Shown here: positions 677-21,942 of the stretch, one piece after another | Position numbering within the stretch: position 1 is the stretch's first letter | How the letters are laid out: each line of letters opens with the position of its first letter | IMG/VR virus record: IMGVR_UViG_3300012685_000002 | Location: 3,411-67,410 of that record | Length of the DNA stretch: 64,000 nucleotides | Reading direction: 5' to 3' (one strand) | Source of the DNA: a virus | Translations under genes and position numbers: made by a program | The notes under the pieces: model-generated | Told to the model about the DNA's origin: nothing | Databases searched by the model: none | What the model saw: the letters and a program-made list of their open reading frames with translations, nothing else

Positions 677-1228
677 CTACAACCAACTTGCGATCTCCTG
701 CGGGGTTGCGGCGGCTTTCTTTCCGCTCGGCCGTTCCGCCTTGCTCGCTTCGGCGTCCGCCTTGACGGCGAGGATGTACCCTCCGCGCCGAGGGGCGGCG
801 AGAATGACACCGCCCGCATTGGTCTCCTTCGCGAACGTGCCAGCCTTGCACGCCTCCACGAAGTCTACCGGAGGCGCGATCAGCCCCGCCGTCACCGCAA
901 GGGCATACTGCTTGCTGAGCGCCGGGCGACGAGCTTTCCCGGGTTCGGCGTAGGGTGAGTAGTTTTGATGCACCCAACTGAAGCGAGGCTGACGGCCCGC
1001 AAGCTCAAACTGGGCCGCCGTCGCGATCAGTTCGGGGTGAGTGGCGGTCACGTCGAGCCCGAGCAGGGCGCACGCGCCGTTGTGAACCTGCTTGCGTTGC
1101 GCGTCCGTCAAGCCCGCAAAGGCTTGCGGCTCGGACACATACGCCAGTGCCACCGCAGTATTGTGCGCGCAGTTGTTGCGGATAAGCCGCACAATCGCTT
1201 CGATGGGTTTCAACTTGGCCGTTGCCAT
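677..1228 (-). CDS. hypothetical early protein
   Basis: ORF 677..1303; likely start MATAKLKP at 1228 with upstream GGAG. Confidence 0.6.
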   Translation of the reverse strand: MATAKLKPIEAIVRLIRNNCAHNTAVALAYVSEPQAFAGLTDAQRKQVHNGACALLGLDVTATHPELIATAAQFELAGRQPRFSWVHQNYSPYAEPGKARRPALSKQYALAVTAGLIAPPVDFVEACKAGTFAKETNAGGVILAAPRRGGYILAVKADAEASKAERPSGKKAAATPQEIASWL

Positions 1229-10600: not shown

Positions 10601-10786
10601 TTAGTTCGCGAAGCGGGCGCTGCGGGACTTGGCAGAGACCTGGGCGCTGACCATGAGCTTCTGGGCCAGCTCTAGGGCTTGCTCGGGGGTGAGGACGTAC
10701 GCCGCGCCATCGTTGTCGTCATCCGTGTTGGCGTGGATGATCACTTGATCGTCAGCGATCTCGATGTGCAGGTTCGACTGGAACAT
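10601..10786 (-). CDS. small hypothetical protein
   Basis: start MFQSNLH with GGAG; LTPEQAxELA motif common in phage proteins. Confidence 0.65.
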   Translation of the reverse strand: MFQSNLHIEIADDQVIIHANTDDDNDGAAYVLTPEQALELAQKLMVSAQVSAKSRSARFAN

Positions 10787-11651
10787 GGCTGCTCCCTTCC
10801 AAGTACTGCTGGATGACATGTGGCCCAGCGACGAAGGAGCCGAGCAAGTACTGCTCCAGCTCCACGGTCGTGCCACGGGGGTGACGCTGGCGCCAGTGCG
10901 TGGCCAGCTTGTCCACCTGTTCGCCTGTAGCATACAACAAGAGGGTCTGTGAATGCAAGAGCAAGGGGATCTCGGGCTGGGCCTCGCAGGTCCGCGTCTT
11001 CGTGAAGCTGAGCATGAGCCGGTTCCCCGCCACGCGCTGGAGATGGAGGCCTGTGTCCGCATCGTCCAGCCACGCTCCGCTGCCTCGGAAGAGCTCATCA
11101 GGATCTAGTTGCTCCTGGTCCACCACCGTCTTCTTGTCATGATGGATGAAGAAGTGAGTAGCCGTCGGGAACATCTCCTGGGACTTCCCGTAGATGAAGC
11201 TGGCCGCATCGTCATCGTTCGTGCCGAGCCGCTGGATCTTCCGCAGCGTGTCCCAGAAGATGATGGAGGGCCGGAGATGGGCGATCTCACACATGACCGG
11301 ATCACTCATGGTCACTTGGGCCAGATCGAAGAACCGTGGAAAGAAGAAGTGGACATCCTTCAGTCGATAGAGCTCCTGGATCTGTCGGATGCGACGCTGC
11401 TGGATGTGGGCCGACATGTCCGCTTGGACATACACGATAGGCCCATAGGGATGTGTAGGATACTTCCCAAAGAGAGCACCATGCTCACTCAGGCAGGCGA
11501 TCAGCGTCAGGGCCAACTGGCTCTTACCGATGTTCCGCTTGCCATGAAAGAAGCAGATGCCCTCTCGGGGAAGAAAGGGCTCGATCAGGAACGCCTGGGG
11601 GAAGACGTGATCCCGCAGGGCCTCAGCTGTCCAGAGGTGCTGCCCGCTCAT
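10752..11651 (-). CDS. RepA-like SF4 helicase (AAA_25-like)
   Basis: Walker A-like GKRNIGKS, Walker B IIFWD, IHHDKK, FRGSGAWLDDAD. Confidence 0.8.
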   Translation of the reverse strand: MSGQHLWTAEALRDHVFPQAFLIEPFLPREGICFFHGKRNIGKSQLALTLIACLSEHGALFGKYPTHPYGPIVYVQADMSAHIQQRRIRQIQELYRLKDVHFFFPRFFDLAQVTMSDPVMCEIAHLRPSIIFWDTLRKIQRLGTNDDDAASFIYGKSQEMFPTATHFFIHHDKKTVVDQEQLDPDELFRGSGAWLDDADTGLHLQRVAGNRLMLSFTKTRTCEAQPEIPLLLHSQTLLLYATGEQVDKLATHWRQRHPRGTTVELEQYLLGSFVAGPHVIQQYLEGSSHVPVEPAHRDR

Positions 11652-12182: not shown

Positions 12183-13061
12183 TTAGAAGTTCCATTTGTG
12201 ACGGAGATACGTTTCTACTGCTGCTCGCTGGGCATCGGGAATGACACTGTTGTAAACAAGCAGTTCAGCTAGACTTCCCACAAACCCGCCTGGCTGACTT
12301 CCATTTCCTCGACCGCCAACGAATGTCGGGTTCGCTGCAAGAACACTTGGCACTCCAGTGAACTGCGCTGTAATACGGTGCATGTTTCTGAGAATCTGGT
12401 TCTTGTAAAGCCACGGGATAGCTCTAGTGTTATCCAGCTGCACAAGCTGTTGTCCGCTGTACGCCCACGACCATAGCGCCCATTCTCCGACGATATTGAT
12501 ACTTGTGCCATCGTTATACTGGTAAACATCAGTAGACAATCCTACGCCGCTTTGCCGGAGAATGACGATATTGACTGCGTTGGAAATGGTGAAGAGATCC
12601 TGATACTGAAAGATCCCTCCATTGTTGTTGCTCAAGGCAGTCGTGAGCAGCGTGTCGGTGTTGATCGACCCTGCCAGTCGTGTCAGGCTGATAATCGAGT
12701 AAGGATTCGTGAAACCGAGCTTGACGAGCCAGGATTTCGCTGATTGGAGACATTGCGTCCCACTGAAAGCGACCACTGGGAGACCGTTCTGCCCCGGAAC
12801 TGTCAGGGTGGGATTCCCGCCACCCGATCCCGAGGGGCCAAGATCGTTCCCGTTGCCACTTTTGTCTACCCATGCTGTCACACTCGATCCATTCGTGCCG
12901 CTCAAGCTCGTGGCGTCATACCACACGAGCAAGTTATTGTCGGGCATAGGGTTGAACGCGCCGGGAGGGTCCATAGGAATGAACACCGCCGTGTTATCCG
13001 GCGTAGTCGTCTTGTCCAGATCCTTGGGTGCGTCGAATGAGCCTGTACGATAGCCTGGCAT
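12183..13061 (-). CDS. LamG/concanavalin-like domain protein
   Basis: LVWYDA...WVDKSGNGN, GSLAELLVYN...VETYLRHKW pattern; start MPGYRTG overlaps pol stop. Confidence 0.75.
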   Translation of the reverse strand: MPGYRTGSFDAPKDLDKTTTPDNTAVFIPMDPPGAFNPMPDNNLLVWYDATSLSGTNGSSVTAWVDKSGNGNDLGPSGSGGGNPTLTVPGQNGLPVVAFSGTQCLQSAKSWLVKLGFTNPYSIISLTRLAGSINTDTLLTTALSNNNGGIFQYQDLFTISNAVNIVILRQSGVGLSTDVYQYNDGTSINIVGEWALWSWAYSGQQLVQLDNTRAIPWLYKNQILRNMHRITAQFTGVPSVLAANPTFVGGRGNGSQPGGFVGSLAELLVYNSVIPDAQRAAVETYLRHKWNF

Positions 13062-14074
13062 TACATCCCCTTGTGCTCGAACTTGGCCATGTGACCCCAG
13101 TTGTGACCCCGCTTCCACTCGACTGGAATGTAGAGCTCTCGACCGTGGATGGCAAAGCGGCGTTCGAGGAACGGGCTGACCGTGCGGACGAGGGTCGGAA
13201 TGGCCTCTGGCGGGCTCTGGAACAAGAGTTCGTCGTGGATCTGGAGGAGCATATCGACTGGCTGGGTCTTGAGGGCGGTATGGACCCGGGGCAAGGCGTG
13301 GTTCATGAGCCACGCAATCGTGCTCTGGGGATAGAAGCTGAGACCCTCCTTGAGACGTTCATCAGGATCAGGGTTGTGGAACGTCCGACGGTAGCCGAAG
13401 CAGTTCCAGAGTACCCCATTCTGCTTCTCCAGCTCTCGACGGGTGGTATCCCACCAGAGCTCCAAGGGATGGAGCTGCAAGAGCTTGTGGTGCAGGACCG
13501 TGACCTGATCCTCGGTGAAGTACATCCCTGTCGTATCCGCTTCCTTGTTCAGGTTGAGGGTGATCGTCCGTACCTTGGCGGCGTACTGACTGGCATAGCG
13601 GATGGTCTTGGCGATGTCCCGCTGGAGTGGCGTGATCTCCGTCTCGAACATGAACTTGGCTAGCTCGACATGCGTATCAATGCCAGCTTCGAGCTTCTCT
13701 AGGTACTTCCAGTCCTTGGAATAGGCAGCGCAGCAGAACGCTTCAGCTCCCACGAAGTCGCAGGCCACCAGCTCCATGCCCTCATCAGCAATGAAGATGT
13801 CCCGCACCTTGTACTCGGGGTCCAGCTTCGCCACCTTCTTCTCCATGTTCTGGAGGTTGGTGGACTCGAACAAAAGACTGTCACTGCTGGACATACGGAA
13901 GCTGGCCGTGTCCGGGGAGAGCACGGTACGGATACGGCCATCCTTGCCCGGGCTAAGGCGTTTGTACGTCCCCGCGACCTTGCGGTCCCGGACTCCCTTG
14001 AGCATCGGGACTACTACTGACTCCGCCACTGCTCGGCGTTCGTTGATCGACTTGATCGAGAACCGGCTGGACAT
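13061..14074 (-). CDS. family A DNA polymerase, C-terminal palm/fingers subunit
   Basis: TASFRMSSS/NLQN, motif A DFVGAE, motif B RDIAKTIRYASQY, motif C QIHDELL. Confidence 0.92.
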   Translation of the reverse strand: MSSRFSIKSINERRAVAESVVVPMLKGVRDRKVAGTYKRLSPGKDGRIRTVLSPDTASFRMSSSDSLLFESTNLQNMEKKVAKLDPEYKVRDIFIADEGMELVACDFVGAEAFCCAAYSKDWKYLEKLEAGIDTHVELAKFMFETEITPLQRDIAKTIRYASQYAAKVRTITLNLNKEADTTGMYFTEDQVTVLHHKLLQLHPLELWWDTTRRELEKQNGVLWNCFGYRRTFHNPDPDERLKEGLSFYPQSTIAWLMNHALPRVHTALKTQPVDMLLQIHDELLFQSPPEAIPTLVRTVSPFLERRFAIHGRELYIPVEWKRGHNWGHMAKFEHKGM

Positions 14075-14258
14075 CCTTCACCCCTTCGTCCTTGATGTCG
14101 AGTACCTGTTTGTGCATGTACTGCACGAAGCACATCGGGCAGCTCTTGAGCCAGATGGTGTTGCCAAGGGCATCCTTGAACTCTAGGAAGTACCACTCTT
14201 TCTTCGTGGTGTACCAGATGTGTCCCTTGGGACACTTGAGCTTACGGGCTTCGCTCAT
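13953..14258 (-). CDS. small Zn-binding hypothetical protein between the polymerase halves
   Basis: CPKGH...CPMC; coupled to upstream ORF; 3' part overlaps pol start. Confidence 0.55.
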   Translation of the reverse strand: MSEARKLKCPKGHIWYTTKKEWYFLEFKDALGNTIWLKSCPMCFVQYMHKQVLDIKDEGVKDVQPVLDQVDQRTPSSGGVSSSPDAQGSPGPQGRGDVQTP

Positions 14259-14506
14259 GAGGCTCTGTCCGAGAAGCAGCGCACCCAGCAAGCGTATTTG
14301 CTGTCGTAATCATCATCCACCGCAATCGGAAACAGCTCGCCCTTCTTCACGTCTCTCTTCTTGTCGTCTTGAAGAGCCTGAAAATAGTCCACTCGGGTGT
14401 ACTTCCACACGACCCCTTCGTTGTCCAGCGCGAACAGTCCAGATGGGCCAACGCTGATCTGGATAAATCTTGATGTCCCGGCAGGATCTCTTGGAATGAT
14501 TTTCAT
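14255..14506 (-). CDS. small hypothetical protein between the polymerase halves
   Basis: QISVG..LFALDNEGVVWKY beta-propeller-blade-like motif; starts 1 nt after the stop of the pol N-half. Confidence 0.7.
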   Translation of the reverse strand: MKIIPRDPAGTSRFIQISVGPSGLFALDNEGVVWKYTRVDYFQALQDDKKRDVKKGELFPIAVDDDYDSKYACWVRCFSDRAS

Positions 14507-14507
14507 A

Positions 14508-16094
14508 TTATTGCCCTCTCGCCCACCGCAGCACCTTCTTCAATGCGGTAGCGTCAGTGGTGATCTTGTTATTCCAGATGTTCTTGGGGGCCCCAATGGC
14601 CTCGTACAAGAAGGTCTTCATCTGCGCAGGAGAGTATGGATTGAAGTGGTACGCCGTGAGCTTGCCCGTACCGCTACAACGTACACAAGGATGGAGCGTC
14701 GCTCCGATCTTCTTCCCGGGCTTCTTAGCGTAACCTGCGCAGCGCCAACACGCTTGGCGGCTGACTGTCCCGCCCCCGCAGCAATCACAGCGCTTCTGCC
14801 GAGCAAACGCTGCCACTCCTTCGCGTTGAATGTAGCGAAGGCCTTCACCTGCGCTGATCTCTTTCGCAGCTTCTGCGCGGGCTTGTAGGGTAGATAGACG
14901 ATGGTGCTGGAGCTCGACATTGATCCGTACCCCTTTCAGTTGCATCTCTACCGTTGCGGGGTAGAGAGATGTGGCGAGTTCGTACTGGGCTTGGCAGCCT
15001 GCGGCCTCCATCTCGGGGAGCATACAGGCAGCCAGCCAGCGCGTGACGTAGGCATCGTTCCCGTTCAAGATGAACATCTTCTCGTTGTGCTGGGGATCAT
15101 CCGGGAGTGGATAGTCCTTCCACCAGGGCAAGTTGAAGTAGAGGGAGGCGAGGAACGCGAGGCCCTTGCGGCTCATACGGCTGGGCGTAATCGCTTTATC
15201 TTCTTCGTCCGTGTCACCAGATCCCGCAAGGTCAGGCTCCAGAGCCCACCACATTTGTTGTGTGTCGTGATGATAGTGACGTACACGGAGATCATAGAAG
15301 AGTCGCATCGCTGGCACGTCGAACCCAGGTCCGTTGTGTCCAACTTTCGGCACGTCGGACAGAAGAATCTGCTTCCCGTATAGGTCAAAGTAGTGTCCCC
15401 ACATCGCTACATACGGTTGCATGTCGTCTCCGCAGAAGCCGCTGCAGAGCAGTGCGGTCATGTCCCACTTCGTCTCAATGTCCCACGCCACCAATCGAGA
15501 GTGAAGAATCTTCTCCACTTGGGCTTGGGTCTGGAGACGGAGGGGTACCGGGAACGCATCACGGGGTAGATCACCAGCAAGCCAGCGTCTACCTCGACGG
15601 AGATCCATTCCCAGTAGATAGCGCCCTGGCGTAGGCTTGCGGAGCACTCCAGCGGGATGGAGGGTGGTGAGCACCAGACCGTCCGGTGTGTCCCAGAAGT
15701 AACCACGACGGTCTTCGATACCTTTGGCTCCAAGGATACCCCGCCCGGCAGTCGGCCATCGAGTACCGAGACAGGCGTATGATGCCTCGTTGCCGAGCGT
15801 GATAGTAAGGCTAGGCCGGAGTCTTCGACGGAGCTGTTGAAGCTGCTCAACTCCTTCAAGTACTCTTCCGGGCTCGTGAGCTTTGAAGTCGTTGGCCGGG
15901 GGACGCCAGCCACAGACGTTGGCGATGTTGACATCTTGGCGTCGGAGTCCGACGCTTCCGAGGACGGTGTCGAGGAGTTCCCCGGCTCGTCCAATGAACG
16001 GTCGTCCTTCACGTTCTTCATCCTCCCCAGGATCACGTCCAATCAACAGGATGTGTCCCGGCTCTGGGTGGTTGATCTCTGGCGGTACGAACAT
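14508..16094 (-). CDS. DNA polymerase N-terminal subunit: uracil-DNA glycosylase-like domain + 3'-5' exonuclease + thumb with Zn finger
   Basis: GRDPGEDEEREGRPFIGRAG and TLHPAGVLR (UDG family 4/5-like); WDIET, HNGPGFD, NGND exonuclease motifs; CxxC pairs; FNPYSPAQ. Confidence 0.88.
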   Translation of the reverse strand: MFVPPEINHPEPGHILLIGRDPGEDEEREGRPFIGRAGELLDTVLGSVGLRRQDVNIANVCGWRPPANDFKAHEPGRVLEGVEQLQQLRRRLRPSLTITLGNEASYACLGTRWPTAGRGILGAKGIEDRRGYFWDTPDGLVLTTLHPAGVLRKPTPGRYLLGMDLRRGRRWLAGDLPRDAFPVPLRLQTQAQVEKILHSRLVAWDIETKWDMTALLCSGFCGDDMQPYVAMWGHYFDLYGKQILLSDVPKVGHNGPGFDVPAMRLFYDLRVRHYHHDTQQMWWALEPDLAGSGDTDEEDKAITPSRMSRKGLAFLASLYFNLPWWKDYPLPDDPQHNEKMFILNGNDAYVTRWLAACMLPEMEAAGCQAQYELATSLYPATVEMQLKGVRINVELQHHRLSTLQARAEAAKEISAGEGLRYIQREGVAAFARQKRCDCCGGGTVSRQACWRCAGYAKKPGKKIGATLHPCVRCSGTGKLTAYHFNPYSPAQMKTFLYEAIGAPKNIWNNKITTDATALKKVLRWARGQ

Positions 16095-16306: not shown

Positions 16307-16806
16307 GAGCTGGCTCCGTCGGCTTGGGGGACGGCTTCGATGCTTCCCGGGCTTCCTGGAAGATCTCCGCCAAGGACTTGTTCAGGTGCTGCATGATCTG
16401 GAGCGCTCCCTCCGGGTCCATCACGGGGATCGTTCCCGTAAACTCCCGGAGCAGGATCGTCCGCTCCGTGTGCTTCTTCGACGGCGCGTGCCGCCGTAGC
16501 TGGATCTTGAGAGAGACCAACCACATAGTTCACATCCATGAGGAAGTTGTCGAGAGCGGCACCCATGGAGGCGTAGCCGTCCGCCTTCCCGATCACGGTG
16601 TCGGCACGGTTGCCGAGGGCCGCGTCGCGAATGAAGCGGATGATGGGCTTGAGCAGGGGCTCGATGAGAAGCAGACAGTTCCGACAGGGACGGCCCTTGG
16701 ACTCCGTGTGATCGCACAGGAAGCCTGCGCAGCCACGCCAGAACTGATTCCCCAAGTGCTCTTCGTCTGCAGCGGAACCGATACGTTGGTACTTGAGTGA
16801 CGACAT
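16303..16806 (-). CDS. hypothetical protein (overlapping alternative frame 16299..16526 also plausible)
   Basis: start MSSLKYQ; Cys-rich N-terminus. Confidence 0.5.
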   Translation of the reverse strand: MSSLKYQRIGSAADEEHLGNQFWRGCAGFLCDHTESKGRPCRNCLLLIEPLLKPIIRFIRDAALGNRADTVIGKADGYASMGAALDNFLMDVNYVVGLSQDPATAARAVEEAHGADDPAPGVYGNDPRDGPGGSAPDHAAPEQVLGGDLPGSPGSIEAVPQADGASS

Positions 16807-16986
16807 CCGTTGATGCTTCACAACTCTTGCCTCACAAGAGGGTCTGGGAAGGGTGGCAGACTGGTGGAGGCAGGCGGAGCGGGGGGCTTGCCTACCGTGC
16901 GTGTTGTATCTGCCCTTTCGCACAGTACAACCAGCGGGGCCGACTTCCCATCAGACGACGTACCGCCTTACGCGGTGTACTGTGAG

Positions 16987-17057
16987 TTGGAGAGGTAGGA
17001 GTCGGACCCACATTCGACGGTTCAAGGCCGTCTGTCCTGCCATTGGACGACTCTCCA
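16987..17057 (-). tRNA. tRNA-Gln(TTG)
   Basis: cloverleaf; GACGG-CCTTGAA-CCGTC; C33; T loop TCCGACT. Confidence 0.88.
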
Positions 17058-17060
17058 GTA

Positions 17061-17129
17061 CAGCGAGTCTAGGTGTCGATCCCAGGACGGCAAGTTTTGG
17101 AGACTCGCCTGTACGCCGGTACACTCGCT
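17061..17129 (-). tRNA. tRNA-Trp(CCA), truncated D arm
   Basis: acceptor AGCGAGT/ACTCGCT; loop CTCCAAA; D arm GTAC-CGGC-GTAC. Confidence 0.75.
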
Positions 17130-17132
17130 ACA

Positions 17133-17204
17133 TGCAGCAACTAGGAATCGAACCTAGTCTCTCACCCATGTCAAGGGTGCGCGTTCCCATCTCGCTCTTG
17201 CTGC
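17133..17204 (-). tRNA. tRNA-Val(GAC)
   Basis: CACCC-TTGACAT-GGGTG; canonical T arm. Confidence 0.88.
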
Positions 17205-17633
17205 TCAGTAATCGACGATCAACTTGCCCTTCAAGTGATCGAGCTCGTGGAGCAGGACTCTCGCCATCAGTCCTGTGGCGTGGATCTGTTCCCAGAGACC
17301 GTCCACGCTGCGGTAGTCCACGATCACTTCCAGCGACCGCTTCACCGGCTTCGTGATCCCAGGGAGGGAGAGACAGCCTTCCTCCTGTTTGTTCCGGTTG
17401 ATCGACTGGGCCCGGAGATGCGGGTTGATCAACGCCAGCTTCTGGTTCTCGATGTTCACCACGATCACTTGCACCGGCTCGCCCACCTGGATCGCGGAGA
17501 GTCCTACGCCGATCCCTTCTACTGTCTCGAACATGTCGTCGATCAATGTCCGAACCCCGTCGTCGATCTCCTTGAGCGGAAGAGACTTCCGACGGAGTGC
17601 CTTCATATCGAACTCTACGATGGTGCGCTTCAT
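17205..17633 (-). CDS. def: peptide deformylase
   Basis: GVGLSAIQVG, EGCLS and HELDH signature motifs. Confidence 0.95.
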   Translation of the reverse strand: MKRTIVEFDMKALRRKSLPLKEIDDGVRTLIDDMFETVEGIGVGLSAIQVGEPVQVIVVNIENQKLALINPHLRAQSINRNKQEEGCLSLPGITKPVKRSLEVIVDYRSVDGLWEQIHATGLMARVLLHELDHLKGKLIVDY

Positions 17634-17635
17634 AG

Positions 17636-17709
17636 TGGAGGCATGGGGATTCGAACCCCAGTCGCTAGTTTGCGGGACTAGCATAATGCCCAGACTATAC
17701 GATACCCCC
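17636..17709 (-). tRNA. tRNA-Ala(CGC)
   Basis: G3:U70 pair; CTAGT-CCCGCAA-ACTAG; C33. Confidence 0.9.
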
Positions 17710-17713
17710 AAGA

Positions 17714-17916
17714 TGTGTGTTCCGTAGCCGCGATTCTGTTTTATCCCGTCATCTGTCTAAGCCCCAACCCGGGGTTCTCTAGGGTCAAGCGATCCCCTGT
17801 TTGGGTTGCAGCATTGCCGTGGTGCGAACCGCTACCCGCACTGCTTGGCGTCCCACGTCCCCATTGCTGTCGCGAACTTCCTCAGGTCTCTCGACCCGCG
17901 ACGGGTCGAACACACA
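17714..17916 (-). ncRNA. rnpB: minimal RNase P RNA (catalytic domain; reduced S-domain; no P18)
   Basis: CR-I GAGGAAGTTCGCG, CR-IV TAGACAGATGAC, CR-V AACAGAATCGCGGCTA; P1, P2, P3, P4, P5, P7 and P15 pair by eye. Confidence 0.9.
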
Positions 17917-17917
17917 G

Positions 17918-17990
17918 TTGGGGGAGCAGGGGTCGAACCTGCACTCTCCGGGTTCAGAGCCCGGCGTGTTGCCAGTTACACCATCCCTCA
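17918..17990 (-). tRNA. tRNA-Gln(CTG)
   Basis: CCGGG-CTCTGAA-CCCGG. Confidence 0.92.
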
Positions 17991-17991
17991 G

Positions 17992-18063
17992 TCTGGCTAC
18001 CGGGAGTCGAACCCGGACTAAGAGGATCGGAGCCTCTCGTGATGTCCGTTTCACTATAGCCAA
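17992..18063 (-). tRNA. tRNA-Arg(CCG)
   Basis: AGAGG-CTCCGAT-CCTCT. Confidence 0.9.
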
Positions 18064-18064
18064 G

Positions 18065-18136
18065 TCCGGCTGGTGGGAGTCGAACCCACACTGAAAGGTT
18101 CGTAGCCTTTCCGTCTCTCCGTTAGCTTACAGCCGA
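18065..18136 (-). tRNA. tRNA-Arg(ACG)
   Basis: AAAGG-CTACGAA-CCTTT. Confidence 0.88.
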
Positions 18137-18137
18137 G

Positions 18138-18210
18138 TTGGACTCCACGGAATCGAACCGCAGCCTGCTGCTTTTCAGGCAGCCGTGCGCACCAGCTACA
18201 CCAGAATCCA
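18138..18210 (-). tRNA. tRNA-Phe(GAA)
   Basis: GCTGC-CTGAAAA-GCAGC. Confidence 0.9.
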
Positions 18211-18211
18211 G

Positions 18212-18280
18212 ACCGCTCGGAGGGACTCGAACCCTCATTGCTCCGGTAGAAACGGAGTCGCTGTCCATCAGCACGAGCAG
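18212..18280 (-). tRNA. tRNA-Arg(TCT), short D arm
   Basis: CTCCG-TTTCTAC-CGGAG. Confidence 0.82.
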
Positions 18281-18281
18281 A

Positions 18282-18536
18282 TTAGTGACGCTCTCGCCAC
18301 CAACAGCTGGTGGGGCGTCCGATCACTGCTTCCCCGTATACCTTCCGTGTGACGAAGCACACCATCACGGGGCTTCCTACTGCTTGCAACCAATACGCTT
18401 CGGTCCCGGTTCCATCATAGCTCCGTGGCCAGTAGGCACGTACAGGGCAGCTGGGGCTCGACACGTCTGGACAGTAGCCCATGTCCTTCACTGTCAGGCC
18501 CTGTGTCATCAGGAGAGCTGCGAGCCAGGTCCACAT
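18282..18536 (-). CDS. inter-tRNA hypothetical protein (84 aa)
   Basis: exactly fills the gap between tRNA-Asp and tRNA-Arg. Confidence 0.6.
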   Translation of the reverse strand: MWTWLAALLMTQGLTVKDMGYCPDVSSPSCPVRAYWPRSYDGTGTEAYWLQAVGSPVMVCFVTRKVYGEAVIGRPTSCWWRERH

Positions 18537-18537
18537 A

Positions 18538-18611
18538 CGCGACTGGAGGGATTCGAACCCTCGCTCTTCTCCGTGACAGGGAGATGGCTTGGACCGCTAG
18601 CCGACAATCGC
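18538..18611 (-). tRNA. tRNA-Asp(GTC)
   Basis: TCTCC-CTGTCAC-GGAGA; G73. Confidence 0.92.
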
Positions 18612-18641
18612 ATTGAGATAGTTTACTGTCATATCTCAGGA

Positions 18642-18734
18642 CTATGTTCTCTTCACTACTCCACAACGACACAACCAGTACCGACTTGCACCCCACGGAT
18701 AAATAATCCGTGTCCACCAATGTTTGTGTTTCAT
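18642..18734 (-). CDS. inter-tRNA micro-ORF (30 aa, MKHKHWW...CRCG)
   Basis: ATG 2 nt after tRNA-Ser discriminator; HxH..W..CxCG motif as in ORF 9205..9612. Confidence 0.5.
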   Translation of the reverse strand: MKHKHWWTRIIYPWGASRYWLCRCGVVKRT

Positions 18735-18736
18735 AG

Positions 18737-18819
18737 CGGAAGGTCAGAGACTCGAACTCTGGAACCCGTTAGGGCCAGCGGTTTTCGGGACCGTTTCCTC
18801 GACCGGCCGGACACCTTCC
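18737..18819 (-). tRNA. tRNA-Ser(CGA)
   Basis: loop CCCGAAA (C33); variable arm; G73. Confidence 0.85.
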
Positions 18820-18821
18820 AT

Positions 18822-18908
18822 TTATTGCGGCTGTGCGCTCGCTCCACCATGATCTTCAGGAGCATCTGACAACTCTCGCCATCTACGCACAGCTTCATCT
18901 GTTGTCAT
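18822..18908 (-). CDS. inter-tRNA micro-ORF (28 aa, MTTDEAVRRWRE...)
   Basis: fills gap between two tRNA-Ser genes. Confidence 0.45.
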   Translation of the reverse strand: MTTDEAVRRWRELSDAPEDHGGASAQPQ

Positions 18909-18909
18909 A

Positions 18910-19000
18910 CGGAGCGTCCAGGATTCGAACCTGGGTGGGGCCTCTGTGAGACTCCTCTGCGTTAGCACCGCAGCGCATTCAACCGCTCTGCCAACGCTCC
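18910..19000 (-). tRNA. tRNA-Ser(GCT)
   Basis: CTGCG-GTGCTAA-CGCAG; long variable arm. Confidence 0.92.
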
Positions 19001-19003
19001 AAG

Positions 19004-19083
19004 TCGTGGACCTAGGGTTCGAACCTAGCATGCCGAAGCGTCTGGTTTACAGCCAGGTGGGACACCGTAGTCCCTTGTCCACG
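19004..19083 (-). tRNA. tRNA-Tyr(GTA), C1:G72
   Basis: loop CTGTAAA; acceptor CGTGGAC/GTCCACG; short V arm. Confidence 0.87.
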
Positions 19084-19086
19084 AAG

Positions 19087-19158
19087 AGCCAAGTGCGTGA
19101 CTCGAACACGCGCTCCCGGTTTACGAAACCGGCGGTCTACCTGTTAACCTAACGAGGC
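19087..19158 (-). tRNA. tRNA-Thr(CGT)
   Basis: CCGGT-TTCGTAA-ACCGG; acceptor mismatches at pairs 4 and 5. Confidence 0.85.
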
Positions 19159-19310
19159 GTAAGCTTCTCGAACTTCTTCAGCACATCCTTGAGCTTCTTC
19201 AGCCGGACTCCCTCTGCCACCTGCACGGAGAGTCCATTTCGAAGCGCGTTGCCATAGGCCACGCTGGTCTCTAGCACCAGCTCTCGGATCTGCTGCATCG
19301 TCAACTCCAT
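19149..19310 (-). CDS. inter-tRNA small protein (53 aa, MELTMQQIRELV...)
   Basis: ATG 2 nt after tRNA-Asn; phage-like codon usage; stop overlaps tRNA-Thr 5' end. Confidence 0.6.
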   Translation of the reverse strand: MELTMQQIRELVLETSVAYGNALRNGLSVQVAEGVRLKKLKDVLKKFEKLTPR

Positions 19311-19312
19311 AA

Positions 19313-19384
19313 CTGGGACCGGAGGATTCGAACCTCCATCTCAGCGGGTAACAGCCGCGTGACTTGCCATTCGCCCAGATCCCA
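19313..19384 (-). tRNA. tRNA-Asn(GTT)
   Basis: loop CTGTTAC; G73. Confidence 0.87.
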
Positions 19385-19385
19385 A

Positions 19386-19460
19386 TGCAGTCAGGAGGAT
19401 TCGAACCTCCACTTGTACCACCTTCTCAGGATGGCCCGTATACCGTTCCGGCATGACTGC
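19386..19460 (-). tRNA. tRNA-Leu(GAG), no long variable arm
   Basis: CCATC-CTGAGAA-GGTGG; 7-nt variable region. Confidence 0.85.
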
Positions 19461-19463
19461 GAG

Positions 19464-19537
19464 TCGTCGGTCGAGGATTCGAACCCCGTGTCCCCGGTTT
19501 ATCAGACCGGTACTCCTACCATTCGAGCTGCCCGACG
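19464..19537 (-). tRNA. tRNA-Ile(GAT)
   Basis: CCGGT-CTGATAA-ACCGG. Confidence 0.88.
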
Positions 19538-19540
19538 AAG

Positions 19541-19613
19541 TTGGCCGCGTGGGCAATGATCCCACAACCTATCGGTTAAGAGCCGATTGCTCTGCCAGTT
19601 GAGCTAGCGACCA
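19541..19613 (-). tRNA. tRNA-Lys(CTT)
   Basis: ATCGG-CTCTTAA-CCGAT; atypical T loop ATCATTG. Confidence 0.88.
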
Positions 19614-19614
19614 G

Positions 19615-19698
19615 TGCACCTGGGAGGAGTTGAACCTCCATGACCTTGCGGTCACTGGTTTCTGAGACCAGTCTGTCTGCCAGTTCCAGCACAGATGC
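19615..19698 (-). tRNA. tRNA-Leu(CAG)
   Basis: CTGGT-CTCAGAA-ACCAG; V arm TGACC-GCAA-GGTCA. Confidence 0.92.
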
Positions 19699-19768
19699 AT
19701 GATCGGTGGGCCGCTAAGCCCTACTCCCTGCCGATCCAGGTAGACGGTAATGAGCCGTCGGGCCCGAG

Positions 19769-19839
19769 AGCTAAGAGCAGGAATCGAACCTGCGCTAGCT
19801 GCTTACCAAGCAGCTGGTCTACCACTAACCTATCGAAGC
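19769..19839 (-). tRNA. tRNA-Thr(GGT)
   Basis: GCTGC-TTGGTAA-GCAGC; acceptor mismatches at pairs 4 and 5. Confidence 0.87.
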
Positions 19840-19842
19840 AAG

Positions 19843-19915
19843 AGCCAGAGGACGGAGTTGAACCGTCACGATCCGCATTACAAGTGCGGCTTGGCATCCC
19901 GATAGCCGCTCTGAC
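19843..19915 (-). tRNA. tRNA-Thr(TGT)
   Basis: CCGCA-CTTGTAA-TGCGG; atypical D arm. Confidence 0.8.
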
Positions 19916-19964
19916 GTGAAGCCCACCGATCCGCAGACCAGGGGCTAGTCTCTTCTATGTACAG

Positions 19965-20037
19965 TGCTGCTCGAAGGACTCGAACCTTCAGTCAGCTGGG
20001 TTTGAGCCAGCCCCGTCTACCGTTGCGGCAGAGCAGC
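19965..20037 (-). tRNA. tRNA-Leu(CAA), no long variable arm
   Basis: GCTGG-CTCAAAC-CCAGC; 5-nt variable loop. Confidence 0.86.
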
Positions 20038-20044
20038 AATGCTA

Positions 20045-20185
20045 CTACTTCTTCCCAGCGTGCTTGAAGTACTCGACCTGCCGTTCCCGCTTCACTGCGG
20101 CGGCCTTGCTCCCAGGCTTCGAGAGGGGCTTGCCGGTCTTCTTGCTCTTCAGAACGAACTTCCCGCCGGTCTTCACGATGGTCAT
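20045..20185 (-). CDS. small highly basic protein (46 aa, ...AVKRERQVEYFKH)
   Basis: AAGGGGA SD, tandem TAG stops, phage-typical codon usage. Confidence 0.75.
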   Translation of the reverse strand: MTIVKTGGKFVLKSKKTGKPLSKPGSKAAAVKRERQVEYFKHAGKK

Positions 20186-20207
20186 ACATTCCCCTTGCAC
20201 AGGTGAG

Positions 20208-20280
20208 TCAGGAGCAGGGGATTCGCACCCCTGTCTGGACCTTGAGAGGGTCCTGTCCTAGGCTCCTAGACGAGCCCCTG
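20208..20280 (-). tRNA. tRNA-Glu(CTC)
   Basis: GGACC-CTCTCAA-GGTCC; T loop TGCGAAT. Confidence 0.86.
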
Positions 20281-20281
20281 A

Positions 20282-20355
20282 TGGCAGAGGAGGGAGTCGA
20301 ACCCTCGGATTCCAGTTTATGAGACTGGCGCAGGAGCCGTGCCTGCTCCTCTGCT
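20282..20355 (-). tRNA. tRNA-Met/fMet/Ile2(CAT)
   Basis: CCAGT-CTCATAA-ACTGG; 1:72 mismatch. Confidence 0.82.
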
Positions 20356-20359
20356 CTAG

Positions 20360-20431
20360 TTGGCCGACTGGGACTCGAACCCAGACCTTACCGCTTAAAA
20401 GGCGGATGTGCTGCGTTCACACTATCGACCA
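20360..20431 (-). tRNA. tRNA-Lys(TTT)
   Basis: loop CTTTTAA; canonical T arm. Confidence 0.88.
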
Positions 20432-20432
20432 G

Positions 20433-20504
20433 TTGGAAATCAGGGGATCGAACCCTGGGCCTCTCGGATGTGAGCCGAGCGCTCTACCGCTGAGCTAATC
20501 TCCA
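20433..20504 (-). tRNA. tRNA-Val(CAC)
   Basis: CTCGG-CTCACAT-CCGAG. Confidence 0.92.
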
Positions 20505-20505
20505 G

Positions 20506-20577
20506 AGCATCTGGCGGGTGCTGCCCCCGCTGCTTCCACCTTGGCAAGGTGGCAGTCTGCTGTTGACTTACAGATGC
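20506..20577 (-). tRNA. tRNA-Gly(GCC)
   Basis: CCACC-TTGCCAA-GGTGG; U73; T loop GGCAGCA. Confidence 0.85.
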
Positions 20578-20669
20578 AGTACCCGCGTTTAATGAGGTAG
20601 CGGGGATCTCAGGACGAGAACCAGGGGCACCATCGCGAAGCTGTTTACCGTGAGTCGCGATCTCACTCA

Positions 20670-20740
20670 AGCACCAGGCGGGAATCGGACCCGCGTGTCA
20701 AGTTTGGAAGACTTGCGCGCAGCCACTACGCCACTGATGC
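20670..20740 (-). tRNA. tRNA-Gly(TCC)
   Basis: CAAGT-CTTCCAA-ACTTG; U73. Confidence 0.86.
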
Positions 20741-20743
20741 ACA

Positions 20744-20815
20744 TGGGAGAGGAGGGTTCCGACCCCTCTTCTGGAGTTTGAAGGACTCCTGTCCTAGCCA
20801 GTAGACGAATCTCCC
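20744..20815 (-). tRNA. tRNA-Glu(TTC)
   Basis: GGAGT-CCTTCAA-ACTCC; C33; T loop GTCGGAA. Confidence 0.82.
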
Positions 20816-20817
20816 GG

Positions 20818-20888
20818 GGTGCTGTACGGGGTACGATCCCGTTCCTGAGCCTTCACAGGGCTCAATGCTTCCATTACACCACCAGCAC
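20818..20888 (-). tRNA. tRNA-His(GTG)
   Basis: GAGCC-CTGTGAA-GGCTC; C73; no encoded G-1. Confidence 0.85.
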
Positions 20889-20890
20889 AG

Positions 20891-20962
20891 ACAGTAGGGT
20901 GGGGATCGAACCCACGTTGCTGGGTTTGCAGTCCAGCGCCTGAACCACTCGGCTACCTACTG
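20891..20962 (-). tRNA. tRNA-Cys(GCA)
   Basis: loop CTGCAAA; U73. Confidence 0.9.
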
Positions 20963-20965
20963 AAG

Positions 20966-21037
20966 TCAGTGATGCAGGAGTCGCACCTGCCTGATCGTGC
21001 TCCCAAAGCACGCGCCTGTCTGCTAGGCTAATCACTG
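20966..21037 (-). tRNA. tRNA-Pro(TGG)
   Basis: CGTGC-TTTGGGA-GCACG. Confidence 0.88.
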
Positions 21038-21206
21038 AAGGTGACCACTTCATTCGTAGGCTGGTCACCCACCCACGCCAGTTCGTTTCGGACGACTGGC
21101 TATCCGATAGAGGAGGAGGAGAGGAGGCGTTGCCGCCCGCTTCTGCCGGTGAGTTACCCCATCCAGCATGTTGTATATCTGCCCGGGGCAGAGTCTCCGT
21201 GTCGAG
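21038..21206 (-). ncRNA. putative structured ncRNA with CCUCCU-rich tract
   Basis: several hairpins between two tRNA-Pro genes; no convincing ORF. Confidence 0.45.
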
Positions 21207-21282
21207 TCGGGGCTGCTGGAATCGAACCAGCCTGATGCCTCGCTTCCGAAGCGAGTGGCCCGAGCCTTGAGCCCGAACCCCG
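21207..21282 (-). tRNA. tRNA-Pro(CGG)
   Basis: CTCGC-TTCGGAA-GCGAG. Confidence 0.86.
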
Positions 21283-21295
21283 AGGTGATGGACCC

Positions 21296-21324
21296 ATAAT
21301 ATCTATGGGTCCACCAGTTGTCAA
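21296..21324 (-). promoter_or_regulatory. sigma70-type promoter of the tRNA/rnpB operon
   Basis: TTGACA-N17-TATTAT; overlapped by inverted repeat TGGACCCATA-N5-TATGGGTCCA. Confidence 0.85.
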
Positions 21325-21327
21325 GGC

Positions 21328-21942
21328 CTACCGAGTCCGCAGGGAAGGCCCTGCTTCCTCGACTTCTGCCGGGCTCGGAGCCACCTCGACTCCGTTCACG
21401 CCCTTGAACGCGATGACGTTGGCCACCGTCTCCTTCTTGGCCGAGCCGTCAGGGTTCTTGCGCGTCTTGGAGTCGTAGCTCCGCTGCTCGACCGTGAACA
21501 GGACTTCCCGGTTCGTGAACACCCCACCCGAGAGGGCGGTGATGAACTCGTCCAGGTCCACGTCCACGTTGCCCGTGGCGTCGAACGACGCGGCGCCCAG
21601 GGCCAGACCGAGCTGCGAGAACAGCGTGGCCGACTGCCGGATGCCGTAGGGGATAGAGTCATCCCACTCCGTCACATCCACGATGGAGATCGGCGTCTGT
21701 CCTGGCTTCGGGGGACGGACGATGTCGAGCCGCTGCATGAGCGGACGGGCACCGACCTGTGGCCCCTCAACCGGGGTGATCTCCTTGAAGGTCAGCGTCA
21801 GCCGAGCGCTGTCCTTCTTGTCCGGCGCGTTCTTCGTGTCCGAGGCGTACCACTCCTGCTTGGCCTCGATCAGCTTCCCCACGAATGTACCCTCGGGGAA
21901 TGGAGGAGACTTCCCTTCTGCGACGTGCGATGGGATCTTCAT
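21328..21942 (-). CDS. putative single-stranded DNA-binding protein
   Basis: PFPEGTFVGKL N-terminus; OB-fold-like pattern; follows Sak4-like ATPase. Confidence 0.65.
   Translation of the reverse strand: MKIPSHVAEGKSPPFPEGTFVGKLIEAKQEWYASDTKNAPDKKDSARLTLTFKEITPVEGPQVGARPLMQRLDIVRPPKPGQTPISIVDVTEWDDSIPYGIRQSATLFSQLGLALGAASFDATGNVDVDLDEFITALSGGVFTNREVLFTVEQRSYDSKTRKNPDGSAKKETVANVIAFKGVNGVEVAPSPAEVEEAGPSLRTR

Follow-up and report, generated by a model that had tools for sequence, protein, structure and literature searches.

The 64-kb window analyzed here, 64,000 nt of the 67,410-bp IMG/VR virus record IMGVR_UViG_3300012685_000002, carries on its minus strand, from 17916 to 17714, a 203-nt homolog of RNase P RNA. 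Direct terminal repeats (DTR) bound this record, which is rated 100% complete, and the genome encodes a major head protein, a portal protein and a large terminase; the carrier is by these features a complete tailed phage. In the phage tRNA array, the RNA takes up the 208 nt that separate tRNA-Gln(CUG) from tRNA-Ala(CGC). An earlier note, made from the letters of the window, had proposed that the phage encodes its own RNase P RNA, some 203 nt long, inside a tRNA operon, and both the identity and the location hold: two RNase P covariance models match the RNA over their full lengths, its base pairs covary among viral relatives and it lies in a genome with tailed-phage genes. We take the window RNA to be a clear RNase P homolog that is claimed by no curated family. 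On the combined evidence, it is likely to be a working, miniaturized RNase P ribozyme of a tailed soil phage that is cotranscribed with its substrates and probably uses the RnpA protein of the host.

Homology and the viral family

The archaeal RNase P model RF00373 aligned with the window RNA over model positions 1-288 (17713-17917, 40.7 bits, E 1.4e-10 in a 251-nt search), with the positions of the specificity domain (S-domain) deleted in the alignment. The model of the archaeal type T RNA, RF02357, matched over positions 1-208 with 40 bits (E 1.1e-8 in the whole 67-kb genome) and ended at exactly 17714 and 17916, the two outer ends of helix P1. The bacterial models RF00010 and RF00011 gave no match at E <= 10 in the whole genome. 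Of the models that the earlier note had named for a check, RF00373 and RF02357 recognize the RNA and RF00010 does not. The Rfam gathering cut-offs are 84 bits for RF00373, 60 for RF02357, 100 for RF00010 and 97 for RF00011, and a search of the window at these thresholds returned tRNAs only, with the RNase P RNA not reported. Indeed, because its RF00373 and RF02357 scores fall under the curated cut-offs, though far above chance, the RNA is overlooked by standard annotation. For comparison, the highest RF00373 score that Chan et al. 2012 (PMC3579882) report from random genomes is 14.3 bits. A covariance model of our own, R1, scored 165.4 bits at 17712-17918 and found a single copy in the genome. 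A blastn search of the window RNA against 50,697 deposited phage records gave no match. The minimum-free-energy fold of the RNA is not distinctive (z -1.57); the case for RNase P identity is a comparative one, made by homology together with covariation and not by the fold of the single sequence.

Relatives were collected from IMG/VR by pattern. An exact scan that combined the conserved strings CR-I, J15/2 and CR-V found 7 contigs. Two 3′-core patterns, which specified neither CR-I, size nor any helix, found 25 viral contigs in the stricter form and, with the looser form, 53 in total. An RNase P-like RNA is present in 44 of these 53, namely in all 25 of the first set and in 19 of the 28 new ones, and homologs with covariation, for which the earlier note had suggested a search of IMG/VR, were thereby found. 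All but one of the first 25 contigs have a CR-I upstream of J15/2, at a distance of 116-195 nt (122 nt in the window); the exception, L016, differs in gene order. The R1 model was built from 8 short members, with nested helices only and an approximate structure from which P4 was excluded, because alignment A1 (458 columns) was too wide and the gap placement in the MAFFT alignments A1-A3 was inconsistent, the gaps of P3 and P16 being set differently in the GC-rich and AT-rich subgroups. R1 finds one copy per contig. Of the 28 new contigs it recognizes 18, with E <= 3.4e-5 and spans of 197-351 nt; L080 is recognized by Rfam instead. The remaining nine new loci (L060, L062, L063, L064, L073, L074, L077, L079 and L085) are not established as RNase P: R1 gave weak matches there, mostly of about 50 nt, and an Rfam search of L060, L063 and L074 found no RNase P. 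One copy was found in a bacterial contig, L050, from a metagenome-assembled genome (MAG), with 120.7 bits on R1.

The pairing of the family was assessed on A5, a machine-made R1 alignment of 24 rows. In A5, 94.2% of the pair cells are paired, compared with 61.8 ± 1.3% after shuffling (0 of 500 shuffles as high) and 31-39% in a control with slid partners. Both sides change in 31 of the 37 pairs, and the covariation score is 0.770 vs 0.201. All 24 rows were counted in these figures, including five that are badly placed (the 5′ half is wrong in L075, L076 and L067, and L070 and L008 are poorly placed). Comparison of the sequences makes P4 the strongest single point for selection on structure. This helix forms 8/8 pairs in 20 of the 24 rows and its four inner pairs covary, although it is absent from R1, the patterns had N along its inner 3′ strand and the 3′-core patterns did not include CR-I.

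Mini RNase P RNAs of the phage type also lie among tRNAs on two contigs that were binned into one Saccharofermentanales MAG, at L050:2062-2261(-) and at L046:1-138(+), the latter truncated (61 bits); both contigs probably represent phage or prophage DNA within the Saccharofermentanales bin. On the viral contig L016, the RNase P RNA gene (767-1059, minus strand) appears circularly permuted. Rfam class B positions 11-317 match there from 1011 to 767 with 58.8 bits, whereas the missing 3′ core (J15/2, the P2 3′ strand, ACAGAA and the P4 3′ strand) lies upstream, from 1059 to 1021, and a 6-nt linker to the P2 5′ strand replaces P1. A second, degenerate J15/2 copy ends this gene just before a tRNA, as if it were the remnant of a tandem duplication.

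Catalytic core, pseudoknot and reduced specificity domain

The helices and strings that the earlier note had named (P1, P2, P3, the P4 of CR-I and CR-V with its bulged U, P5, the P15/L15/P16 region and J15/2) were all recovered where it had placed them on the minus strand, and their coordinates are given here for that strand. The 5′ strand of P1, UGUGUGUUC (17908-17916), pairs with 17714-17722; all 9 pairs form in the window, and 9/9 column pairs change on both sides among the 24 members. P2, with the 5′ strand CCCGUC (17900-17905) opposite 17745-17750, has 6/6 pairs in the window and in 18 of 24 members, and 6/6 of its column pairs covary. The P3 hairpin (17884-17897), 5 bp with a GAGA loop, is also fully paired (5/5) with covariation in 5/5 column pairs; in L002, L009 and L019, P3 is larger, at about 64-103 nt. 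CR-I, GAGGAAGUUCGCGA (17870-17883), includes the 5′ strand of P4 with the bulged U at 17875 and a GAGGAAG string that is invariant in alignments A1-A3. Its partner is CR-V, which together with J2/4 reads AUAAAACAGAAUCGCGGCUA (17725-17744) and in which ACAGAA and GGCUA are invariant. P4, 8 bp with one bulged U, is formed between the 17883-17870 region of CR-I and 17733-17726, at the end of the CR-V string ACAGAA-UCGCGGCU-A, and all 8 of its pairs are present in the window. The idea that this P4 is one pair shorter than the consensus was dropped, as the RF00373 alignment shows equal length.

Downstream of CR-I, the P5 5′ strand CAGCA (17865-17869) pairs with 17809-17813, with 4/4 tested pairs formed and 3/4 column pairs covarying. 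The J5/15 linker is the 3-nt CAA (17806-17808), and GCAA at this place is invariant in A1-A3. The P15/P16 region (17771-17805) consists of the P15 5′ strand (17803-17805), J15/16 (AAACA) and the P16 hairpin (17771-17797). P15 forms 3/3 pairs in 24/24 rows and all three covary, and the two P16 pairs tested are 91% paired. The internal loop L15, GGGUU (17766-17770), contains GGU and is of bacterial style, as the earlier note had read it; GGT is present in 24/24 aligned members. In bacterial RNase P, the GGU of L15 pairs with the 3′-RCCA of the tRNA (PMC11143913). The 3′ strand of P15 (17763-17765) leads directly into J15/2 (GCUUAGACAGAU) within 17751-17765, with P18 absent. Among the features of the universal RNase P core (Rfam clan CL00002), the window RNA and its family show P4 with a bulged U, a full-length covariance-model match, and compensatory change in P1, P2, P3, P5 and P15.

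With two defects, P1 can be extended (17709-17722 with 17908-17923), the 3′ end of tRNA-Gln then pairing with the 5′ end of tRNA-Ala. Comparable extensions exist in L002, L006 and L013, and they may reflect chance complementarity of acceptor ends.

A further element, missed in the earlier note, is a proposed P6 pseudoknot between a 5′ strand UGGGG in J5/7 (17859-17863) and CCCUA (17780-17784) in the P16 loop. In other members both sides of P6 are wholly different in sequence, with complementarity kept. Because neither MAFFT nor the covariance model aligns these loops, P6 was tested by a duplex permutation, in which the J5/7-loop duplex of each RNA was compared with all foreign combinations (20000 permutations). 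Cognate duplexes have a mean of -7.87 kcal/mol against -5.21 kcal/mol for foreign ones, and 0/20000 permutations were as good. The result was the same with 12 representatives of different sequence types; the test was run in three versions, one of them without L075, L076 and L067. These sequences support the predicted P6 pseudoknot across the family, and in the window alone they are consistent with it.

The distance between the P5 strands is 51 nt, of which 5 form the P6 5′ strand and 45 an S-domain stub (17814-17858) with a P7-like closing helix (17853-17857 with 17818-17822). Most of the S-domain is indeed absent, as had been proposed, the S-domain positions of RF00373 being deleted and the 45-nt stub standing in their place. 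The closing helix that the earlier note had drawn for this stub survives, alone, in the centroid fold; the small hairpins drawn inside it are absent from the centroid, and the interior folds no better than shuffles (z +0.94). In comparison with the nearest relatives, L006, L013 and L022, the core is 73-92% identical and the stub 53-61%, with length changes, a pattern that points to constraint on the catalytic core and not on the stub.

The loss of P18, which the earlier note had also called, is equally clear from spacing. In the window RNA, only 5 nt separate the GGU of L15 from J15/2 (CUUAGA), so that no P18 is possible, and the spacing does not exceed 12 nt in 22 of the 24 members. Two other loci, L010:6003-6237(+) and L020:5726-5960(-), have an extra 6-bp hairpin within the 37-38 nt between the L15 GGU and J15/2, in the position that P18 occupies in bacterial RNase P.

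Relation to known RNase P RNAs

The likeness to the archaeal type T RNA, to which the earlier note had compared the window RNA, lies in its plan: about 200 nt, a complete catalytic domain, most of the S-domain gone and no P18. In addition, the S-domain of type T ends in a small stub at P7-P10, where the window RNA has its 45-nt stub. However, the score on RF02357 is 40 bits against a cut-off of 60. In type T as described in PMC3579882, P2 has 3 bp and the P5/P15 linker 2 nt, in contrast to 6 bp and 3 nt (CAA) in the window. Moreover, the window RNA belongs to a bacterial phage and not to a hyperthermophilic archaeon. Pop5, Rpp30 and Rpp29, the proteins that accompany type T RNA, would not be expected here, and no search was made for them. 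By analogy, the type T comparison would be apt for function and not for membership. From archaeal RNase P in general (RF00373), the window RNA differs in its score, 40.7 bits vs a cut-off of 84, and in lacking the specificity domain P7-P12.

With bacterial type A (E. coli M1 RNA, rnpB, RF00010), the window RNA shares P1-P5, P15/P16, L15 with GGU and the bulged U of P4, and P6 is predicted. It differs in that P7-P14 are replaced by the 45-nt stub, P18 is absent and the RF00010 cut-off is not reached (there being no match at E <= 10), and in being a natural viral gene of a virus without rnpA. The bacterial holoenzyme differs likewise, as the cognate rnpA (PF00825) is not in the phage genome. The predicted architecture is that of a type-A catalytic domain (C-domain), with P6 and with P15/P16 and L15. 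According to PMC5839562, an engineered E. coli C-domain without S-domain (Eco CP RPR, an RNase P RNA [RPR] construct) is active, depends on a "P6-mimic" and can dispense with P18, and the P. furiosus C-domain is active without protein. The phage RNA lacks P18 and probably retains P6.

Longer relatives in phage arrays suggest how this form may have arisen. RF00010 aligns end to end with L080 (92.5 bits) and L083 (46.9 bits), and long S-domain strings are common to the 301-nt RNA of L080 and the 258-nt RNA of L023; together with the window RNA they form a size series (301, 258 and 203 nt). In a sample that is biased by the search patterns, the sequences of these longer forms suggest a possible stepwise reduction from bacterial type A. 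L080 is a viral contig of 98 kb that bears more than 25 tRNAs; its RNase P RNA gene, at 10733-11033 on the minus strand, represents the L023 lineage in near-complete form.

RNAs of DPANN archaea (Aenigmatarchaeota and Micrarchaeota MAGs) share with the phage family the CR-I/CR-V wording GAGGAAGUUC ... ACAGAA-N4-GGCUA, and the pattern CTTAGAYRRAT-N6-20-ACAGAA-N4-GGCTA in genome_contigs (L027-L059) has 29 archaeal hits among 33 cellular ones. These archaeal RNAs differ from the window RNA in being 219-266 nt long (R1 alignment), in retaining S-domain strings, in having no GGGUU before J15/2 (alignment A6) and in scoring 25-52 bits with R1. An archaeal origin, for which the shared DPANN wording and the archaeal nature of the best Rfam models might speak, was rejected as unproven because the patterns themselves selected that wording and because L080 and L083 match class A and L016 class B. 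Drastic shortening is also known from the yeast mitochondrial RNase P RNAs (RPM1), which are encoded beside tRNA genes in a small genome. These are organellar, however, need a dedicated nuclear-encoded protein and have lost much of the C-domain periphery too.

The nearest published case (PMC9569102, 2022) is that of S-domain-divergent RNase P RNA copies in mycobacteria. Mycobacterium austroafricanum and M. sp. YC-RL4 have extra copies with altered S-domains and a suspected horizontal origin, in which functional residues are conserved and to which an endonuclease gene is adjacent (PMC9569102). A gene for an HNH-like endonuclease recurs beside RNAs of the phage family as well. The mycobacterial copies are chromosomal, and in that text they are not described as phage genes or as minimal forms.

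Genomic setting and proposed function

The tRNA array was found in two soil DNA data sets, one of which may be its source. Its phage has a major head protein with a single distant match, 22.4% identical, to an uncultured Caudoviricetes record. A peptide deformylase gene, def (PF01327, E 4e-38), lies within the array at 17205-17633 on the minus strand, 2 nt after tRNA-Ala, and since the phage encodes this enzyme a bacterial host is indicated. In the complete 67-kb genome, neither rnpA (PF00825) nor a CCA-adding enzyme (PF01743) was found at E <= 1, the absence of rnpA agreeing with the earlier note; in control searches, each of these two families was above its cut-off in 10 of 14 genomes. ARAGORN predicts 30 tRNAs (16986-21282, minus strand), with ends that can be off by one. 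The array is tightly packed, many inter-tRNA spacers being 0-3 nt, and its gaps of 124-431 nt contain open reading frames (ORFs). The RNase P RNA follows tRNA-Gln(CUG) (17917-17990) by 0-1 nt, the end of that tRNA being 17917/17918, and precedes tRNA-Ala(CGC) (17635-17709), which starts at 17709, 4 nt past P1. The first base is G in 12 of the 30 tRNAs, U in 11 and C in 7, and G stands at -1 in none. T-loops deviate from UUCRANY in 6/30 (Gln-UUG, Lys-CUU, Glu-CUC, Gly-UCC, His and Pro-UGG), and the D-loop GG is missing in 2/30; the elbows are odd in a minority of the tRNAs, not systematically.

A sigma-70-like promoter candidate, TTGACA-17-TATTAT (21296-21324, minus strand; 11/12 matches), lies upstream of the first tRNA of the array. 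It is the sole such site in 16800-21600, a count that is not above shuffles (1 found, 1.4 expected), and no minus-strand terminator was found inside the array. The setting recurs in the family. Of 28 loci tabulated, 27 bear tRNAs, and in each of these 27 every tRNA shares the strand of the RNase P RNA; a tRNA is within 100 nt in 18 of the 28, and at least 5 tRNAs are within 5 kb in 22.

From structure and setting we infer a route of production, a mode of catalysis, a set of substrates and a protein partner. The RNA would be transcribed within a long phage tRNA precursor, as its gene leaves no space for a separate promoter or terminator, and would be released by the cuts made on its neighbors, that is, by 5′ cleavage of tRNA-Ala and 3′ trimming of tRNA-Gln. 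Once freed, it would remove 5′ leaders and inter-tRNA spacers from the 30 phage tRNAs. Catalysis would come from the core, P4 with its bulged U, J15/2, J2/4 and J5/15, held in place by P1-P3, P5, P15/P16 and the P6 pseudoknot. Substrates would be bound through the acceptor stem and by pairing of the L15 GGU with 3′-RCCA, recognition of the elbow (T-loop/D-loop) by the S-domain having been given up. The host would first have to add the CCA, since no phage tRNA encodes it. RNase P is reported to prefer a 3′ CCA in the dimeric tRNA precursors of phage T4 (PMC11143913). The likeliest protein partner would be host RnpA, because the phage lacks rnpA and no neighboring protein is conserved.

Several points weigh against a working ribozyme of this kind. 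No curated Rfam RNase P family reaches its cut-off on the window RNA. The family was found via core strings, so that their conservation follows from the search itself. In A5, R1 fitted the rows to the nested helices, whose pairing is thereby inflated, while P4 is unaffected; and related sequences can beat column shuffles without structure, a concern that the slid-partner control answers in part. The 5-bp P6 duplex of the window, at -7.0 kcal/mol, is not distinctive on its own, as 5 of 11 foreign loops equal it. None of the 30 tRNAs (ARAGORN) encodes the CCA that L15 would read, which makes the L15-CCA contact dependent on prior processing by the host. Finally, C-domain-only ribozymes work "with reduced efficiency" (PMC5839562).

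Alternative explanations share parts of this evidence. The RNA might mainly bind host RnpA, as a decoy or hijacker that halts or redirects host tRNA maturation. Bacterial RnpA contacts P2-P3, J15/2 and J2/4 in solved holoenzyme structures; these are the best conserved parts of the phage RNA, and the phage genome has no rnpA. Yet a decoy would have no need of catalytic details, which are kept (the bulged U of P4, ACAGAA, GCAA, and GGU in 24/24), and the tight same-strand embedding among tRNAs fits an enzyme made with its substrates, so that we regard a decoy as unlikely. An active RNase P could instead have as its main job the cutting of the polycistron at tRNA "punctuation", freeing the mRNAs of def and of short ORFs as well as itself. 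The start of def 2 nt after tRNA-Ala and the ORFs in the 124-431-nt gaps would suit such a role. However, its chemistry would be the same as that of tRNA maturation, the two not being exclusive, and the RNA is beside tRNAs in 18/28 loci but has no protein gene conserved next to it (best 7/31); as the main job, punctuation cutting seems improbable.

Functional decay and a cellular source are weaker still as accounts of the RNA. In a decaying relic of a captured host rnpB, functionless at present, one would expect the fast-evolving stub, with its stability no better than shuffles, and Rfam scores that are all below cut-off. Uniform decay would not be expected to leave compensatory changes in 31/37 pairs across GC-rich and AT-rich phages, core strings kept exactly, or a core so much better conserved than the stub (identities given above), which indicates selective constraint on the core; a relic is thus very improbable. 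We give hardly any credence to a nonviral contig carrying the cellular RNase P of a reduced organism (e.g., DPANN or the candidate phyla radiation, CPR). The 29 archaeal MAG contigs among the 33 cellular hits of the 3′-core pattern might suggest one, but the DTR, the 100% completeness at 67 kb and the major head, portal and terminase proteins contradict it, the archaeal RNAs score 25-52 bits with R1 and keep S-domain strings, and the deformylase points to a bacterial host.

Beyond the single RNA, we raise the broader proposal, tentatively and with some doubt, that phages have repeatedly reduced bacterial type-A RNase P RNA to a private tRNA-maturation enzyme of about 200 nt that consists of the catalytic domain only, leaves the tRNA elbow unchecked and works with borrowed RnpA or free of protein. 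If so, nature would here have converged on the same solution as archaeal type T and the mini-ribozymes made in the laboratory, and the phage could mature its own odd tRNAs (18/30 not starting with G, 6/30 with aberrant T-loops, none with CCA) independently of the host enzyme or in competition with it.

No description of a phage-encoded RNase P RNA was found in the full-text literature, subscription journals and supplements lying outside the search, and the available text of a 2024 review mentions phages merely as sources of tRNA substrates (PMC11143913). RNase P RNA is usually treated as a gene of cells and organelles; here it is virus-borne, half-sized and under clear selection. A working form would be a natural experiment on the minimal RNA for RNase P, alongside type T and the engineered C-domains, and the 301/258/203-nt series offers material for studying domain loss in a ribozyme. 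That phages with large tRNA sets may also bring a maturation enzyme would widen the notion of phage-encoded translation machinery. The RNA also exposes a blind spot of annotation, because no Rfam family reaches its cut-off on it. In addition, an RNase P of 203 nt whose CCA-binding loop is of bacterial style could serve as a small tool enzyme.

When the ORFs around the RNA (± 4 kb) were clustered for 31 loci, no protein proved to be widely shared. A "conserved ORF" of the window itself, considered as a candidate cofactor, was set aside, as it merely overlaps the RNA gene. The best family, present in 7 of the 31 loci and absent from the window, has a CxxC...HH...N...CxxCH pattern in a small basic protein, which we take to be HNH endonuclease-like. 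Copies lie at L006:3514-3843(-), L006:7025-7372(-), L081:8115-8426(-) and L007:3031-3348(-), with others in L008, L023, L067 and L075. The proteins have 70-130 aa and no Pfam hit, and the isoelectric point is 9.4-10 in 7 of 8 copies. In L006 and L081 the gene is directly downstream of the RNase P RNA.

Two other genes of the window are unusual in layout. The deformylase gene has no room for a ribosome-binding site, and another tRNA gene starts at its 3′ end (17204). The family-A DNA polymerase (13061-16094, minus strand) appears split into an ORF with a UDG domain (14508-16094) and an ORF for the C-terminal part (13061-14074), both of which have Pfam hits.

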